DNA of 50,031 bases from Pseudomonas phage HHBS10_2. Position numbers and translations under genes: made by a program. The notes below the pieces were generated by a model, which saw only the letters and a list, made by a program, of their open reading frames with translations, searched no databases and was not told the origin of the DNA. Each line of letters starts with the position of its first letter. Position 1 is the first letter of the stretch. Of this stretch, positions 34,715 to 41,947 are shown one piece after another. The stretch lies in the sequence record PQ287653.1. The stretch is one strand, 5' to 3'.

Positions 34715-35302
34715 TTATGTAGAAATATGATTACGAACAAGGATATCGTTAACCCACTTATCACGATCTTCCTCGTCAATGTATCCGTTAGGGTTGTTCT
34801 GCCCACCCACATAACCCCATTCGTAAATACTTCGCAACCATCCAGGTAGGTCAGATAGCTTTGCGCGCAGTGCTGCGACTTCCCTGTCGATCTTCTCACA
34901 ATCCGCAAGCAGTCGTGTATTTTCTTCGTAAAGACTCTCGTTGTACTGCGTCAGCTTGTCGACGATGCGCCCCAGCGCCTGGGCCTCGGCGCGAAGTTCC
35001 TCGATCTCCATCTCCATTCCGCCGCATTGCTGGCGAGCAGTGTTACCCTTGGACGCGGCGTCGCGTGCCATCGCCAGTTCTTTCTCCAGCTTCGCATTCG
35101 CCGCCCGCAGCGCTCCGACGATGCGCTCATGCTGGGCGACGGTCATCAGCGGTTCGCGCAGACCGAGCGTTCCTGCATCATCGCTATAGAACCAGCCCGG
35201 AAGCGGCTCTCCCTCGGCATTGGTGCAGTGGTAGCGGAATGCAACAACCTCCACCCGCTCCGCCTCTGCCTGTTCTGCCAATTCTTTATTCAGTTCGTTC
35301 AT
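34715..35302 (-). CDS. coiled-coil protein with a GC-rich (about 62%) core; resembles Ea22/Ead-type enterobacterial prophage proteins
   Basis: sharp local GC jump at 34,860-35,300; heptad-rich sequence. Confidence 0.45.
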   Translation of the reverse strand: MNELNKELAEQAEAERVEVVAFRYHCTNAEGEPLPGWFYSDDAGTLGLREPLMTVAQHERIVGALRAANAKLEKELAMARDAASKGNTARQQCGGMEMEIEELRAEAQALGRIVDKLTQYNESLYEENTRLLADCEKIDREVAALRAKLSDLPGWLRSIYEWGYVGGQNNPNGYIDEEDRDKWVNDILVRNHIST

Positions 35303-36048
35303 TTCAATTCCTCAAACCTTTTGACATAACCTTCGAGCGTCGTGCCATCAACTCCTGGAGCTGTATTGACTTCCAGCACGTATGCTTTCTGTTCTTTCTC
35401 GTTGAAGATGACATCTGCTGCACCGAAGTCAAGTCCACAGGCTTCAACAGCCTTAATAGCTTGTTCAACAATGTCTTCATGAGGTTTCACCCCTTCATTA
35501 CGTGCGAAGATAAAGCCTCCACCAATGTTCCTAATCTTCCAATTTACTTCTTCATCAGGAACATCTTTCTTACGGGCTTTACGTTGAATGTCTACACACT
35601 CTCCACGGAACACATGAATACGCCATTCCTGCTTCTTTGGGACGTACTTAGTGTATAGCGGAGCATCTACAAGATTGCCACCTGGCCCTACTAGGACAAT
35701 ACCTTTACCACTATTAGCATTGAGCAAAGTACGACATACCACTGTACTTCCATCATTAAGCCACTGAAGGGCCTTCTCCTTCTCTGTGGTGAACTCTGGC
35801 AGTCGGGCATGGGTATGTACTGCCTCGAAGAAAGAAAGCTTATTAGCGGCCTTAGAGACCGCTACAGGGCCATTCAGAACGGTGCACTTAAGAACTTCTT
35901 CTGGTACACTGCTGCTTCCCCAGTTAATCACTACTTTCTCAGGCTTACCTTTGAACTTACTGTTCTTATGCTTAATGAATTTAACATCAAGCATATCCCT
36001 GATGGCTTTGCCAGCCTTACTTCCATTATTGTACGCGTAAATAAACAT
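35299..36048 (-). CDS. ATP-grasp ligase (RimK-like)
   Basis: NANSGKGIVLV, EWRIHVF, YVLEVNTAPG ATP-grasp signatures. Confidence 0.8.
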   Translation of the reverse strand: MFIYAYNNGSKAGKAIRDMLDVKFIKHKNSKFKGKPEKVVINWGSSSVPEEVLKCTVLNGPVAVSKAANKLSFFEAVHTHARLPEFTTEKEKALQWLNDGSTVVCRTLLNANSGKGIVLVGPGGNLVDAPLYTKYVPKKQEWRIHVFRGECVDIQRKARKKDVPDEEVNWKIRNIGGGFIFARNEGVKPHEDIVEQAIKAVEACGLDFGAADVIFNEKEQKAYVLEVNTAPGVDGTTLEGYVKRFEELK

Positions 36049-36998
36049 TAGAATGGTACCTCGTCAATCCAAACCGGGGGAAGGGGTAGAGGCTTGTCCT
36101 CATCAGGGACAACCCAAAGTTCATCAAGTTCAAATGGTAGCCGCTTTGGCATTACTGGTGCTGGTGGAACAATTTCTTCTTGGAAGAACTGTTGCCAGTC
36201 ACAACAGAACGCAATGTCTTGTGCTCTACGCATACCAGCGTTAAGCATCTTAGGGATGTTGTCGAAGCCTTTAAAGATTTCTACATGTTCACCTAGACAT
36301 TTAACTAGGAATGCGTCAGCGTCCCCTTCAGAGTAGCCATTGATAATATCTTTAGGATCAGTAAACTTCTTAGCTGCCTCTCGAAGATCAAGAAGAATGG
36401 TTGCCCACTTATGAATGAGGTTTAGATCACGAGTGCCACGCATAGCACGGAACTCAAGACTGCCATACGTGCCCAAAGCCTTAACGTTCATAGAGCCGTA
36501 ACGAAGATTGTCGTCCGTTAGAACTCTGCGGAATTGTCTTGAGCGTGCTGCTTCAGACAGCCGGAACAACAACCACTCTGCGTCACATGCACGCAGGCAA
36601 AACAAATTGCCCTCTCTATATGGACCACAAAACTTAACTAGAAGTTCCTCAAGAATAAGGTAGAGAGTCATATAATTATACAACTCTACAATGTTCAATT
36701 GCTGTACGTTAATATGTACGTGAACACCAGCTCTTACAGTATCGTCTACAATAGCTTGGTGTTTCTTATATTGCATGTTCAGGTGACTAAGAGCAAGTTT
36801 GGCTTGCTTAATGGTGAGAGGTTTCTCTAGAACATACTCCGCATTATCCTCTCCTCGAAGAGAGCCATCAGCCTCCACTCGCCAATACTTCTCGAAGTGC
36901 TTGGGCAAATTCTTACCTTCCACTTCAATCTCTATGCCAACATCACCCTTGGCAGCAAAGTCCTCTCTGATGCCGAACCACTGCATCACAGTTTTCAT
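36048..36998 (-). CDS. amidoligase (glutamine-synthetase-like, Amidoligase_2 / GCS2-type fold)
   Basis: [45 protein letters not shown] motifs. Confidence 0.7.
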
Positions 36999-37543
36999 AG
37001 CACCTCCTGAAGTGCTTCTCGAAGAAACATATTATCACCTTTCAACTCTGGCTTACCATTAATCACACTGCCCACAGCGGTGTTCTTATAATAAAGTGGA
37101 CGCTCTTTAGTCCTAGACTTGCCAATTGCCCATTCCCTGCACCAAGCCTTGAAAGTGTTGTTAGGGGTAGCTAAGCACTCTTCAAGACTGGGATAGATGT
37201 TTTCAATAGTGTCAGCTAGGTTAGGGAAAGGCACAAGTTCAGCAATGGTGCCAAAGACAGATACAAAGTTACCCTTGCGAAGCCCCTGCCTCCAGTCCCT
37301 ACGCATTGGCATGCGAGTTAGATAACTAACATCCATATTAATGTTGCAAAAACCAAGCTTAACAGGGCTTAAATCTAGGTCGTCTAGTTTGACAATTTTT
37401 GGTTCTGCATCTTTGCGAAGGGCGCTGATTATAGCCCCTTTCTTTCCTACCCCTTCTACAAGGACAGCCTTGCCATCATGACGCACAATGGTGCCTTGCA
37501 GTCTGCTGTCTGCATATTGCCAATCGTCACCATACATATTCAT
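36995..37543 (-). CDS. hypothetical protein (182 aa) within the amidoligase cluster
   Basis: ORF, overlaps neighbours by 4 nt. Confidence 0.4.
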
Positions 37544-40273: not shown

Positions 40274-40401
40274 ATTTTATCCTCACAGCGCCTGTCTTAC
40301 TGCAATCCAAATAAGTGTTGATACCCCTGCTAAGAAAGCTGTGAGGGAGCCAAACATAATTGTGAAAAGCACAATCATAACTACACTTTCGAGACGGTCG
40401 C

Positions 40402-41028
40402 TCATGCTTTTAGCCCCAGATAACGATTAAGCAATTCAAAGTAATAGTCACGAGTGCTGTCAGCGTTATGAAATTCTGGATGTGGTTGGAAGCACAAGGA
40501 CTTGGTGTTGTCGTAATACACTACCTCTACATCTGCTTCATTAGCCAGGAATACACTATCATAGCTTTCCTTAACTTTAGACTCATAGGCAACAGCAATG
40601 ATTTCTCCATTGTAACCTGGAATCATCATTTGATGGTGAGTAGAAGTTACTGAAAGTTGTTCACCAGAGAACCTATCTTCGAGGTCATGTTCCCTACCTT
40701 TAGCATGACCGTTAACATGTTGGTACATCTTACCGCCATTCATAACGTTAAGGAACTGGCCACCACGACAAATGCCTGCCATACGAATTTTGTTTCGCTG
40801 AGCAAAGGCAAAGTAACCTGCCTCTTCCAAGTCACGTCTTTCATTGTGATAGGTCTTTGGATGGACGCCTTCACCATACAACATAGGCGTAACATCTTCA
40901 CCTCCAGCAAATTGGATTAGGTCTGCTGTGAAGAAGTCTTTAATGCTGCCCACTTCCCAACCCATACGCTTAAACATCTCAGCGTACTGGCCATTTCCGT
41001 TGATAATAACTACTTTAGGCACGTCCAA
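40402..41028 (-). CDS. class I glutamine amidotransferase-like / peptidase C26 (gamma-glutamyl hydrolase-type) protein
   Basis: nucleophile elbow AGICRGGQFLNV plus downstream His/Glu. Confidence 0.65.
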   Translation of the reverse strand: MDVPKVVIINGNGQYAEMFKRMGWEVGSIKDFFTADLIQFAGGEDVTPMLYGEGVHPKTYHNERRDLEEAGYFAFAQRNKIRMAGICRGGQFLNVMNGGKMYQHVNGHAKGREHDLEDRFSGEQLSVTSTHHQMMIPGYNGEIIAVAYESKVKESYDSVFLANEADVEVVYYDNTKSLCFQPHPEFHNADSTRDYYFELLNRYLGLKA

Positions 41029-41947
41029 TCTCCTTCATAATTTCATGTTCGAAAGCTGCCATAGCTTCAATACCCTTCCAATACGGGACGGAGTTGCCCT
41101 CTTCTTTGGGCTTAGCTTTCTCAAACGGGTTGACGCCTTTGTTGGCCTCAGCTTTCACTTTAAAGTTACGCTCTAACCACCAGCCCATATTATTTTCTGG
41201 TTCACGCATTCCCCACCCAGCACTTTGCTTATCTTTATGCAAGTACATCCTATCGTAGTAATTATACTGGACACACTTAGAGTATGGCTCATTTGGGGTT
41301 GTGACTTTGTGATCAAGCCATGCACACAAAGCTTCTTTATCAAAGAGGTGTGGGTTCATAGAGCAATGAGCACTGTGGCAAGTCAAGAAATTAATATTGC
41401 CTGCCCTATTCGCCCTTGCTTGGCTATTATGAGCCACCCAAAAAGCCAAATCTTCATTCATACCAGCATGCACCAAGTCATGCCACACGATTAGAATGTG
41501 ATTGGTTTCCCACAAACGACGAGAAGCTACCAGTCCAGCGGCCAACAGATTAGAGGGAGCACTACTGTCTGCAATGATACAACTATTTTTAATAGCGTCT
41601 TTAGCAGACTTAGTAACAAACACCTCATTATATGGGCTTCGATTAAGAAGCCAATCTAGGTAGGCTTCCCCCTCTTTAGTATTGAGTAGGTTGCCTATAT
41701 ATTTAGGTTGGAGACCGCTAATAACCGCAAGCGAATTAGTCGGCAAACTCTTCAAGCCAAAGTGGCAAGCTTGGTTTGTACTCACTTGCAAGTGATCTTT
41801 GTACGCATTATTTTGGTACACAGCACCTACACTAGCCATGCACGCTGCGTCTAATTTGTAATGGCCATTAACTTTCTCCTTGCCTAAGAGAATTTTCTTA
41901 AATACTTTCCTGGCCTTCAATGCAATGAGGTAGTGTTCTCGTTTCAT
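41015..41947 (-). CDS. hypothetical protein (310 aa) of the amidoligase cluster; several conserved Cys/His
   Basis: ORF, translationally coupled to the GATase-I gene. Confidence 0.4.
   Translation of the reverse strand: MKREHYLIALKARKVFKKILLGKEKVNGHYKLDAACMASVGAVYQNNAYKDHLQVSTNQACHFGLKSLPTNSLAVISGLQPKYIGNLLNTKEGEAYLDWLLNRSPYNEVFVTKSAKDAIKNSCIIADSSAPSNLLAAGLVASRRLWETNHILIVWHDLVHAGMNEDLAFWVAHNSQARANRAGNINFLTCHSAHCSMNPHLFDKEALCAWLDHKVTTPNEPYSKCVQYNYYDRMYLHKDKQSAGWGMREPENNMGWWLERNFKVKAEANKGVNPFEKAKPKEEGNSVPYWKGIEAMAAFEHEIMKEIGRA

Follow-up and report, generated by a model that had tools for sequence, protein, structure and literature searches.

The minus-strand gene cluster at positions 35299-41947 of Pseudomonas phage HHBS10_2 (PQ287653.1; the window is the whole 50,031-nt stretch analysed) is the amidoligase neighbourhood of phiEco32 type that Iyer et al. 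predicted in 2009, as that work is represented in the papers citing it. Our analysis suggests, with confidence that we would place about midway, that this module is a cytoplasmic multienzyme amide-bond-forming pathway of a strictly lytic Pseudomonas podovirus. Specifically, it encodes three predicted ATP-dependent carboxylate–amine ligases with intact catalytic residues (RimK-like ATP-grasp, PF12224, and PF14395) and two predicted glutamine-amide/γ-glutamyl hydrolases with intact nucleophiles: an Ntn class II enzyme, whose glutamine pocket resembles that of GlmS, and a class I/C26 enzyme. Phages of unrelated families inherit the module proteins together as a single block. The conserved core consists of the Ntn-glutaminase, the PF14395 ligase, the 182-residue protein g182, the PF12224 ligase, and the RimK-like ATP-grasp enzyme, a composition that is possibly new. 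The features of the cluster are:

35299-36048, minus strand: RimK-like ATP-grasp ligase, 249 aa (PHROG, RimK structure profile match)
36048-36998, minus strand: Amidoligase_2 (PF12224), glutamine-synthetase (GS)-like COOH-NH2 ligase, 316 aa (Pfam, PHROG)
36995-37543, minus strand: g182, 182-aa nonenzymatic core protein (tandem SH3-like barrels)
37546-38406, minus strand: phiEco32-type COOH-NH2 ligase type 2 (PF14395), 286 aa (Pfam, PHROG)
38416-39729, minus strand: class II (Ntn) GATase with C4 zinc ribbon, 437 aa (Pfam, conservation)
39735-39789, minus strand: 55-nt repeated upstream element (copies elsewhere in the window)
39782-40273, minus strand: g163, 163-aa exchangeable passenger, or moron (phrog_3483)
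40283-40405, minus strand: 40-aa hydrophobic ORF of uncertain reality (no family match)
40402-41028, minus strand: class I GATase-like/peptidase C26 of the γ-glutamyl hydrolase type, 208 aa (Pfam, PHROG)
41015-41947, minus strand: g310, 310-aa protein (phage-only family)

All ORFs lie on the minus strand at the coordinates given in the first-pass annotation, and its description of contiguous, tightly coupled genes is confirmed by the ORF positions and by successive gaps or overlaps of -14, -4, +9, +52, +9, +2, -4, -1, and -4 nt, with both ATGA and TAATG stop/start junctions present. The count of eight genes holds for the ORFs themselves but includes g163, a lineage-specific passenger, and leaves out the 40-aa ORF, which is likewise a passenger. 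The g163 gene, whose phrog_3483 match carries no annotated function, is 93-94% identical in nucleotide sequence to genes of the temperate Pseudomonas phages JBD44, JBD88b, and DO4, is restricted to PA11-like loci, and has a same-slot counterpart with 77% protein identity in TC6 and just 36% in O4; it is thus an exchangeable moron outside the conserved module. The 40-aa ORF, whose start overlaps the upstream stop by 4 nt, has no family match in Pfam or PHROG, no homolog at the other loci, and no ORF at its slot in O4, and we regard it as a lineage-specific passenger of uncertain reality. The other two of the three proteins originally listed as unknowns are conserved partners. One, g182, comprises tandem SH3-like (KOW/Tudor-like) β-barrels and is a presumed adaptor or scaffold; the other, g310, whose fold is phage-only and has no relative in the PDB, often accompanies the cluster and is a candidate new enzyme or accessory subunit. 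The promoter-like motif reported in mid-cluster is also real: the 55-nt element ends in TAGAAAAATTTTTGGAGGT (a ribosome-binding site) directly upstream of the Ntn-GATase gene, where TC6 keeps it, and recurs in the same orientation at 19738-19792 (75%) and 43805-43859 (85%), with partial copies at 47244-47269 and 47282-47307. It is a presumed phage promoter and leader, although scoring against the σ70 consensus promoter gave no match.

Every enzyme assignment was verified, with catalytic motifs intact, and four of the five calls exceed curated Pfam cut-offs. The 286-aa ligase matches PF14395 (COOH-NH2_lig) at 6.9e-10 (39 bits, cut-off 25) and phrog_3815 at 2.4e-96, with invariant or near-invariant residues that include D10, E12, Q44, D46, E51, H136, and H138 and, C-terminal to these, R180, R191, E198, and R200; neither sequence nor profile searches found a PDB relative. 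The 316-aa ligase matches PF12224 (Amidoligase_2) at 2.4e-7 (31.3 bits, cut-off 22) and phrog_7469 at 1.9e-124, and its residues E25, E27, S46, E54, H93, H95, E117, N171, E182, and R184 are invariant across ten phage lineages; sequence searches found no PDB relative. Both GS-like ligases thus retain invariant Glu/His/Arg sets, and their description as paralogs is sound at the superfamily level, but a profile–profile comparison of PF14395 with PF12224 was not significant. The ATP-grasp call fell below every Pfam cut-off (R2K_2, 21.8 against 26.2 bits; RimK, 15.2 against 21) and is borne out instead by phrog_2599 (7.4e-101) and by a match, spanning nearly the whole length, between its family profile and the RimK structures 7qyr, 7qys, 5zct, and 4iwx (E 3e-9 to 8e-8). 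Its best NCBIfam match is the MptN α-L-glutamate ligase (1.2e-10), followed by the RimK family (1.6e-4), both below curated cut-offs; a D...E-V-N-T-A-P-G motif is visible in the translation, and K70, E141, R143, K157, D212, E226, and N228 are among the invariant residues.

Of the two hydrolases, the 208-aa protein matches Peptidase_C26 at 3.1e-16 (60.3 bits, cut-off 20.5), GATase at 9.5e-6, also above cut-off, and phrog_7218 at 5e-82. Its Cys-His-Glu triad (CRG, HHQ, HPE) is kept and is conserved in homologs from crAss-like, Vibrio, and Rhizobium phages, and in NCBIfam it is weakly similar to the PuuD-type γ-glutamyl-GABA hydrolase (2.9e-4) and to γ-glutamyl-CDP-amidate hydrolase. The 437-aa Ntn-GATase matches GATase_6 at 1.2e-16 (61.4 bits, cut-off 27) and GATase_7 at 3.5e-8; its TTG start yields an M-C-G-L N terminus, and its N-terminal domain (approximately residues 1-200) matches the GlmS and PurF structures. 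Among 78 homologs, C2 is 100% conserved and R29, H79-N80-R81, N106-G107, and D124 are conserved in at least 90%. The Cys-rich C-terminal domain of the first-pass annotation resolves into a C4 zinc-ribbon motif at the very end (C396, C399, C421, and C424, conserved in 92-94% of the same homologs), the rest of the C-terminal half being unconserved: outside the four cysteines, column identity across residues 200-437 is 11-31%, and a Pfam scan found no known synthase domain.

Co-conservation in relatives is very strong. Across 44 well-flanked loci, on which the co-occurrence counts rest, the genes for the Ntn-GATase, PF14395, PF12224, and ATP-grasp proteins each occur in 44/44, on one strand and in orders that recur; g182 occurs in 38 of these loci (and in 85/88 viral loci by BLAST clustering). 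The C26 gene occurs in 37/44 loci and a γ-glutamyl cyclotransferase (GGCT) gene in 13/44; at least one of them is found at every locus, GGCT standing in where C26 is absent. The block occurs in Zobellviridae, Kuravirus, Bruynoghevirus, Lahexavirus, Grimontviridae, a crAss-like phage, and a Rhizobium phage, and in most lineages lies directly upstream of the primase/helicase gene. Accessory parts vary by lineage, including g310 paralogs, the ATP-grasp enzyme (249 to 750 aa), and the GATase C-terminal half. Relatives of the PF14395 ligase were found in 318 phage records (tblastn) and at least 553 IMG/VR stretches, and the family is essentially absent from bacterial genomes, with 40 loci among 185,579 species genomes, almost all on MAG contigs, mostly of phage size. 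HHBS10_2 itself is a Paundecimvirus of the PA11/O4/TC6 group (94-96% nucleotide identity) within the Zobellviridae, and GenBank records already annotate the cluster in the same-genus phages TC6, O4, and K4. The label "T7-like phage" is therefore incorrect: HHBS10_2 encodes a σ70-family factor (Sigma70_r2, 1.4e-14), no T7-type single-subunit RNA polymerase was found among window ORFs of at least 400 aa, and only the replisome is T7-like.

In the pathway that we propose, the module would be expressed from an early/middle leftward transcription unit, and its overall chemistry would likely be stepwise ATP-dependent glutamyl/amide ligation combined with γ-glutamyl trimming. The ligases would convert carboxylates to acyl-phosphates for coupling to amines; for the RimK-like enzyme, the most likely reaction is addition of L-glutamate to a glutamate or carboxylate terminus. 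For their part, the two GS-like ligases may form γ-glutamyl-type or other side-chain amides or, alternatively, carboxamides, with ammonia supplied from glutamine by the Ntn enzyme. The C26 protein, which GGCT replaces or supplements in other lineages, would remove or trim a γ-glutamyl unit with a free α-amino group in an editing or deprotection step. To our knowledge, the sole chemistry common to peptidase C26/PuuD and GGCT/GGACT is cleavage of the γ-glutamyl–amine bond, and we propose trimming because one or the other is present at all 44 loci. The result would be a short adduct containing Glu/Gln, attached to an acceptor for which the conserved block has no gene. The acceptor that we favour, tentatively and at clearly less than even confidence, is a macromolecule, namely the tail of a host or phage protein recognized via the SH3-like adaptor and the zinc ribbon; the KOW/Tudor-like fold of g182 and the C4 ribbon of the Ntn enzyme are typical macromolecule-binding elements. 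The near-absence of PF14395 from species genomes, together with the lytic nature of TC6, which is without an integrase, argues for a role in the lytic cycle (takeover, exclusion, or counter-defence) rather than in lysogenic conversion. In a Bruynoghevirus, the amidoligase and Ntn-GATase genes acquired parallel missense mutations in two directed-evolution lines (PMC11450229), indicating that the module affects phage fitness. The literature searched reports no experimental function for such phage clusters, and the first-pass statement that the neighbourhood was predicted computationally, without a substrate or target, agrees with the papers citing Iyer et al. 2009.

Instead of modifying a macromolecule, the module could make or remodel a free γ-glutamyl-containing metabolite, with γ-glutamylation as a transient protecting or activating group, a possibility that we consider somewhat unlikely. 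Targets might be amines, among them polyamines (PuuA/PuuD-like), or the glutamyl tails of cofactors like folate (MptN/CofF-like ligase plus γ-glutamyl hydrolase), for use in phage nucleotide/DNA metabolism or in interference with host signalling. The NCBIfam resemblances of the ATP-grasp enzyme to the cofactor ligase MptN and of the C26 protein to small-molecule hydrolases point this way, as does the C26/GGCT interchange, which parallels known deprotection steps, including those of PuuD in putrescine catabolism and BtrG in butirosin biosynthesis. In HHBS10_2 the module adjoins replication and nucleotide genes, the phage ThyX is folate-dependent, and NAD-salvage-like genes neighbour the module in two lineages. 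However, a conserved tandem β-barrel partner and a glutaminase zinc ribbon would be unusual for a soluble metabolite pathway, the lineage-variable accessory parts better fit a host-specific macromolecular partner, and neither a transporter nor a further tailoring enzyme is linked to the block. More improbable is amidation or extension of peptidoglycan stem-peptide precursors or another envelope peptide to block superinfecting phages. Peptidoglycan peptide synthesis and amidation do rely on enzymes of these classes (ATP-grasp Ddl, the MurT/GatD amidotransferase pair, and AsnB-type Ntn enzymes), the stem peptide contains γ-linked glutamate, and D-Ala-D-Ala ligases are among the weaker ATP-grasp matches. 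Nonetheless, the ATP-grasp profile is closer to RimK (E 3e-9), its nearest solved relative, than to Ddl (5e-5); Pfam and NCBIfam scans of the core found neither a Mur-ligase domain nor a signal peptide or conserved membrane protein, the sole hydrophobic ORF (40 aa) being lineage-specific; and the module is essentially confined to lytic phage genomes and seldom if ever occurs in bacterial chromosomes or prophages, the usual setting for exclusion by envelope modification. According to PMC10580990 and PMC11318856, cell-wall modification is what Iyer et al. 2009 had predicted.

Decoration of a phage base with an amino-acid-derived group, evading restriction, is very unlikely. In viral contigs, amidoligase/amidotransferase domains are found together with genes for thymidine hypermodification (PMC8989533), and the position upstream of primase/helicase, or in the crAss-like phage between the primase and uracil-DNA glycosylase genes, would suit such a role. 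However, the ThyX of HHBS10_2 is ordinary (3.9e-45, Pfam scan of window proteins); Pfam scans of the window and the O4 annotation revealed no dUMP hydroxymethylase, 5-HMUDK, aGPT-Pplase, DpdA, or TET/JBP; no nucleic-acid-modifying domain was found in the cluster proteins; and Paundecimvirus genomes were sequenced and assembled routinely. Finally, that these are independently acquired auxiliary metabolic genes sitting together is scarcely credible. The passengers g163, the 40-aa ORF, and g195 indicate that the region tolerates insertions, but the co-occurrence data effectively refute this explanation, and the core genes share a strand, recurrent orders, and overlapping start/stop codons.

The phage amidoligase neighbourhood was reportedly predicted computationally by Iyer, Abhiman, Burroughs, and Aravind in 2009 (Mol Biosyst 5:1636). 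This phiEco32-type neighbourhood, seen in Kuravirus, LUZ24-like Bruynoghevirus, and others, shares with HHBS10_2 the PF14395 ligase (named after phiEco32), its PF12224, Ntn-GATase, and ATP-grasp partners, and the same gene block at the same place upstream of primase/helicase. The PA11-like version differs in having the C26/class I GATase where Kuravirus and Bruynoghevirus have γ-glutamyl cyclotransferase, and in lacking a protein of about 73 aa that in those phages sits between the GATase and ATP-grasp genes (DUF7195 in L131, there the positional equivalent of Ab22 ORF25); it has one g310 copy and a compact 249-aa ATP-grasp enzyme.

Among solved proteins, the closest relative of the ATP-grasp enzyme is RimK, the ribosomal protein S6 poly-α-L-glutamate ligase (4iwx, 5zct, 7qyr), with which it shares the Mg-binding D/E-x-N motif, although it does not reach the RimK cut-offs of Pfam and NCBIfam. 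RimK acts without GS-like ligases or amidotransferases, so its substrate is not transferable to the phage enzyme. Precedents for protein-directed action of these folds are pupylation (PafA/Dop) and LysW/LysX, in which GS-like PafA and the RimK-family ATP-grasp LysX join a glutamate carboxylate of a small protein to an amine; however, the phage block is not accompanied by any conserved gene for a Pup-like or LysW-like tag, and apart from weak ATP-grasp similarity no sequence relation to PafA, Dop, or LysX was detected. In MurT/GatD and AsnB-type peptidoglycan amidation, a glutaminase and an ATP-dependent ligase amidate a carboxylate, and the phage block likewise is predicted to pair such enzymes, but without a Mur-ligase or asparagine-synthetase domain in Pfam or NCBIfam. 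PuuA/PuuD, butirosin BtrJ/BtrG, and EgtA/EgtC are γ-glutamylation/deglutamylation pairs, in which a GS-like or ATP-grasp ligase adds a γ-glutamyl group that a C26, GGCT, or Ntn-amidohydrolase enzyme later removes, a logic and a set of enzyme classes that match the phage C26/GGCT alternation. In contrast to these pairs, which act in cells on known small molecules or carrier-bound intermediates, the phage block combines three ligases, two hydrolases, and a noncatalytic barrel protein and is found in lytic phages only.

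The amidoligase region of phage HHBS10_2 consists of nine tightly packed - strand ORFs at 35299-41947, and the coordinates and strand given in the first-pass annotation, which did not count the 40-aa ORF, are matched exactly. Successive genes are separated by -14, -4, +9, +52, +9, +2, -4, -1, and -4 nt, with ATGA and TAATG junctions among them, a spacing that bears out the tight coupling described earlier.

Genes of the amidoligase region, in the direction of transcription, with the best profile matches of the predicted enzymes.
41015-41947, - strand: 310-aa protein of a phage-only family (g310)
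40402-41028, - strand: Peptidase_C26/class I GATase of the gamma-glutamyl hydrolase type (C26); Pfam 3.1e-16, 60.3 bits against a cut-off of 20.5
40283-40405, - strand: 40-aa hydrophobic ORF
39782-40273, - strand: 163-aa protein (g163)
38416-39729, - strand: class II (Ntn) GATase, GATase_6/7; Pfam 1.2e-16
37546-38406, - strand: PF14395 COOH-NH2_lig (phage COOH-NH2 ligase type 2); Pfam 6.9e-10, 39 bits against a cut-off of 25
36995-37543, - strand: 182-aa tandem SH3-like-barrel protein, presumed adaptor (g182)
36048-36998, - strand: PF12224 Amidoligase_2; Pfam 2.4e-7
35299-36048, - strand: RimK-like ATP-grasp protein; phrog_2599 7e-101, NCBIfam MptN 1.2e-10, family profile against RimK structures

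The enzyme families proposed in the first pass were recovered by HMM scan. Four of the five enzyme calls (PF12224, PF14395, class II GATase, and Peptidase_C26) pass curated Pfam cut-offs, and the ATP-grasp protein, which lies under every one, was recovered through PHROG and a structure profile. Specifically, a profile of the ATP-grasp family built from ten lineages hit crystal structures of RimK with E-values of 3e-9 to 8e-8 across nearly its full length, while the protein itself scores under the curated RimK-family cut-offs (Pfam RimK, 15.2 versus 21 bits; NCBIfam rimK_fam, 21.2 versus 143; MptN, 40.9 versus 350). Despite the sub-cut-off Pfam scores, the predicted assignment to the ATP-grasp superfamily is secure. 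As judged from these profiles the likeness to RimK is also real, with membership of the RimK family and its substrate being predicted rather than established. The two predicted glutamine synthetase (GS)-like ligases, PF14395 and PF12224, each pass their own Pfam cut-off and carry invariant Glu/His/Arg sets; sequence and profile searches found no PDB relative of either, and hhalign found no match between the two families.

As residue conservation shows, none of the five enzymes has lost its catalytic residues. In the ATP-grasp protein K70, E141, R143, K157, D212, E226, and N228, comprising the ATP-binding Lys/Arg residues and the Asp...Glu-x-Asn metal ligands, are invariant in ten lineages, and in the C26 enzyme the Cys-His-Glu triad motifs CRG, HHQ, and HPE are conserved. 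The Ntn-GATase begins M-C-G-L at a TTG start with a GGAGG box 8 nt upstream, which places the catalytic Cys right after the initiator Met. Among 78 homologs, C2 is conserved in 100% and R29, H79-N80-R81, N106-G107, and D124 in at least 90%; we take these pocket residues to map onto Arg26, Arg73, Asn98-Gly99, and Asp123 of GlmS. The Cys-rich C-terminal domain previously ascribed to this protein stands only in part: Cys 396, 399, 421, and 424 are conserved in 92-94% of homologs and are predicted to form a terminal C4 zinc ribbon, but the remainder of the C-terminal half is unconserved. Pfam and NCBIfam detected no fused synthase domain of the kind present in GlmS, PurF, AsnB, or GltB, and longer homologs carry no fused domain that hints at a substrate. 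A relation to known anti-phage defense systems was also considered and rejected, as PADLOC models matched none of the eight cluster proteins and returned only two weak SMC-like matches for the flanking 195-aa coiled-coil protein (g195).

Comparison of loci separates a conserved core from its lineage-specific surroundings. Ten annotated loci from seven phage groups, together with 80 IMG/VR loci, were analyzed by BLAST, iterated HMMs, and de novo clustering, and loci with at least 7 kb on each side (n = 44) were regarded as well flanked. The Ntn-GATase, the PF14395 and PF12224 ligases, and the ATP-grasp protein were each present in 44 of 44 well-flanked loci, always on a single strand and in a few recurrent orders, so that the co-conservation on which the first-pass annotation depended is borne out; the same enzyme block occurs in Kuravirus ES17 and Bruynoghevirus Ab22. 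The g182 protein was found in 38 of the 44 by strict HMM, in 85 of 88 viral loci by BLAST clustering, and by iterative HMM in 9 of the 10 annotated phage loci, those of Kuravirus and Bruynoghevirus included. Its gene nearly always lies between those of the two GS-like ligases, and g182 is a core member of the module. A C26 gene is present in 37 of the 44 loci and a gamma-glutamyl cyclotransferase (GGCT) gene in 13, with at least one of the two in every locus. The g310 protein, which has a new fold, occurs in 29 of the 44 loci and in 55 of 88 viral loci by clustering, with up to three paralogs in LAh_6. Collectively, these comparisons show that three ATP-dependent carboxylate-amine ligases and two glutamine-amide/gamma-glutamyl hydrolases, all of them intact, are inherited as a block together with two conserved partners that are not homologous.

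The module is widespread among phages. By tblastn, relatives of the PF14395 protein were found in 318 phage records, and a PF14395 pattern scan of IMG/VR gave at least 553 stretches; the relatives of this ligase include proteins of Pseudomonas, Escherichia, Vibrio, Aeromonas, and Rhizobium phages and of a crAss-like gut phage. By contrast with this abundance, 185,579 bacterial and archaeal species (one genome each) yielded only 40 PF14395 loci, nearly all on phage-sized MAG contigs, and because the family is so rare in species genomes, the module is essentially an invention of lytic phages. One chromosome record, the 6.86-Mb Pseudomonas tolaasii CP020369.1, contains at 6780515-6801075 a complete Bruynoghevirus-like early region that includes the amidoligase block; this region may represent a phage in a carried or pseudolysogenic state, or else an artifact of assembly. 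In two unrelated phages, Aeromonas phage LAh_6 (16006-18675 of the stretch compared) and Pseudoalteromonas phage Slicky01 (1994-4275), the block is adjoined by ribose-phosphate-pyrophosphokinase-like and nicotinate-phosphoribosyltransferase-like genes, a pair reminiscent of phage NAD-reconstitution genes.

Four genes in or beside the region, g163, the 40-aa ORF, downstream g195, and an upstream 76-aa gene, are confined to PA11-like phages. The g163 gene has 93-94% nucleotide identity to genes of the temperate Pseudomonas phages JBD44, JBD88b, DO4, and others, whereas its product has only 36% identity to the O4 protein in the same slot, which indicates that lytic podoviruses and temperate phages have recently exchanged genes at this position and marks g163 as an exchangeable passenger. 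The lineage-specific g195 gene (34715-35302) is translationally coupled to the ATP-grasp gene by a 4-nt overlap; its size varies, TC6 having a 449-aa gene and a separate 97-aa gene over the same sequence, and its product has only weak SMC/Rad50-like coiled-coil matches. A conserved small tag or carrier protein was sought in the cluster and not found, the 76-aa upstream ORF and the other small neighbors being lineage specific; a protein of ~73 aa is common to Kuravirus, Lahexavirus, and Vp_R1 only and does not occur in PA11-like phages. In Rhizobium phage RHph_N3_19, no fewer than 11 small proteins encoded within or near the ligase cluster share an acidic C terminus, (D/S)Q-x-GDTE(E/D)DI-stop (ORF ends 204, 2194, 4052, 5854, 6726, 10292, 12566, 13620, 15587, 15914, and 16194), to which nothing in the HHBS10_2 window is comparable. 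The codons of this tail vary synonymously; thus, the constraint is on the peptide and not the DNA, and the tail might serve these proteins as a common binding element or tag them as ligase substrates. Recurrent tails in other contigs (LEDYM and the like) were rejected as substrate marks, as they represent the Shine-Dalgarno sequence and ATG of the next gene.

The genomic setting differs from that first proposed. The region has 94-96% identity to Pseudomonas phages vB_PaP_DMTU_1, IME180, Ty, K4, and O4 and 88-90% to TC6 and PA11, and the close relatives are lytic podoviruses of the genus Paundecimvirus, family Zobellviridae. The window encodes a sigma-70-family factor (31210-31710; Sigma70_r2, Pfam 1.4e-14), ThyX, a family A DNA polymerase, and a Toprim-DnaB primase-helicase, but its ten ORFs of at least 400 aa include no single-subunit T7-type RNA polymerase, and no RNA polymerase Pfam match was obtained. 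The designation T7-like, in the sense of Autographiviridae, was therefore abandoned, as it fits only the replisome. On the leftward transcription unit the cluster is preceded by small early genes and followed by those for replication and nucleotide metabolism. Within the same genome the ribonucleotide reductase small-subunit gene (21476-23256, - strand) is interrupted relative to that of O4, with residues 1-105 encoded at 23256-22942 and residues 107-322 at 22123-21476. The ~815-nt interruption (about 22126-22940) holds a LAGLIDADG endonuclease ORF (22181-22849; Pfam 4e-25), and an Rfam group I intron model matches end to end at 22162-22950 with 29.9 bits (E = 1.9e-5), which is under the gathering score; it looks like a mobile group I intron that is not in O4. 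A tRNA is matched by Rfam ~700 nt upstream of the cluster (42674-42753, - strand; 44.5 bits against a gathering score of 29). ARAGORN reported none in the whole window. In O4, a tRNA-Arg is annotated in the equivalent early region.

The promoter-like motif noted in the middle of the cluster is a true repeated element. It measures 55 nt, reads ATAATGCAATG...CAATG...TAGAAAAATTTTTGGAGGT, and is repeated upstream of three - strand genes.

Copies of the 55-nt element; the three full copies share one orientation and lie upstream of - strand genes.
39735-39789: copy within the cluster
19738-19792: copy
43805-43859: copy
47244-47269: partial copy
47282-47307: partial copy

The element terminates in a ribosome-binding site, and its copy ahead of the Ntn-GATase gene is kept upstream of the same gene in TC6. 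Because it bears no resemblance to the sigma-70 consensus promoter, its role as a promoter is only inferred; it may serve as recognition site and leader for the sigma factor that the phage encodes. At 43805-43859 the element runs into the ORF annotated at 43490-43852, overlapping its 5' end, and the true start of this ORF is probably an internal Met after the motif.

The established chemistry of these families suggests how the parts may work together. The ligases would form acyl-phosphates and then couple them to amines. The ATP-grasp enzyme, whose nearest relatives are the alpha-L-glutamate ligases RimK and MptN, probably adds glutamate onto a terminal glutamate or carboxylate, and the GS-like ligases would make gamma-glutamyl-type amides, or carboxamides with ammonia from the Ntn glutaminase. 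C26 hydrolases and GGCTs have one step in common: both cleave gamma-glutamyl-amine bonds in which the alpha-amino group of the glutamate is free. Since the two interchange across lineages, this cleavage must belong to the pathway, where it would either edit the product or take off a transient gamma-glutamyl group, and the presence of such a bond is implied. That the module is restricted to lytic phages speaks for a function in the infection cycle rather than in lysogenic conversion.

What accepts the new bond is less clear, and the candidates differ in probability. A protein or other macromolecule, which we tentatively place first, is favored by the likeness of one ligase to RimK, by the barrel adaptor and the zinc ribbon, and by accessory parts that vary among lineages. 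A free metabolite, ranked next, seems somewhat unlikely, and the cell wall, the acceptor of the published proposal, is improbable. Modification of DNA comes last and is very improbable, because the phage has an ordinary ThyX and known entry enzymes are missing: a search of the window for the thymidine hypermodification genes (dUMP hydroxymethylase or TET/JBP, with 5-HMUDK and aGPT-Pplase; Lee et al. 2021) turned up only ThyX, which is not one of them, and the O4 annotation lists none. The DNA hypermodification route is not supported on this ground. If the acceptor is indeed a macromolecule, the module could be a phage-exclusive machine that writes a new amide-linked modification, a Glu/Gln-containing and possibly branched peptide, on the tail of a host or phage protein early in infection. 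The RimK-like and two GS-like ligases would be placed by the g182 adaptor and the zinc-ribbon glutaminase, C26 or GGCT would edit the product, g310 would be an enzyme of unseen fold, and the whole would serve host takeover or counter-defense. We regard this fuller scheme as possible but doubtful.

The module itself is not new: it has been described computationally, it carries annotations already, and the phage genus is a known one, so that no new entity is involved. GenBank entries for TC6, O4, and K4 label the genes [quoted passage not shown]; they are also tabulated in the TC6 paper and, for LUZ24-like phages, elsewhere. The module has been a purely computational prediction since 2009, and full-text literature searches found no experimental work on its function. 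What comes closest to functional evidence is the directed evolution of a Bruynoghevirus, in which two independent lines gained parallel missense mutations in the amidoligase and Ntn-GATase genes (PMC11450229). The first-pass interpretation was essentially right in its enzyme calls, co-conservation, and recognition of a known computational prediction. Added here are g182 as part of the core, the equivalence of C26 and GGCT, the new fold of g310, the phage-only family, and the separation of passengers from core. This sharper parts list brings testable constraints, namely the gamma-glutamyl-amine bond, a lytic-cycle role, and an adaptor in the core. The block is among the more widespread conserved lytic-phage enzyme modules still without a function, and its remaining interest is that unsolved function. 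Several Pseudomonas phages under consideration for therapy carry it, among them TC6, which lyses 86/233 clinical isolates, and Bruynogheviruses are also used; discovery of its substrate would reveal a new viral post-translational modification, metabolite, or envelope or DNA modification.

Among known systems, the pocket residues of the Ntn-GATase match those with which GlmS binds free glutamine or a gamma-glutamyl compound. The cluster as a whole, with its PF14395 ligase, its linked same-strand PF12224, class II GATase, and ATP-grasp genes, and its co-conservation as a block, belongs to the phiEco32-type phage amidoligase type, a kinship already present in the Pfam name of PF14395, "Phage phiEco32-like COOH.NH2 ligase-type 2." In later papers (PMC10580990, PMC11318856), Iyer et al. 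2009 are credited with predicting that the amidoligase/GATase genes of phiEco32 modify the cell wall and thereby prevent superinfection.
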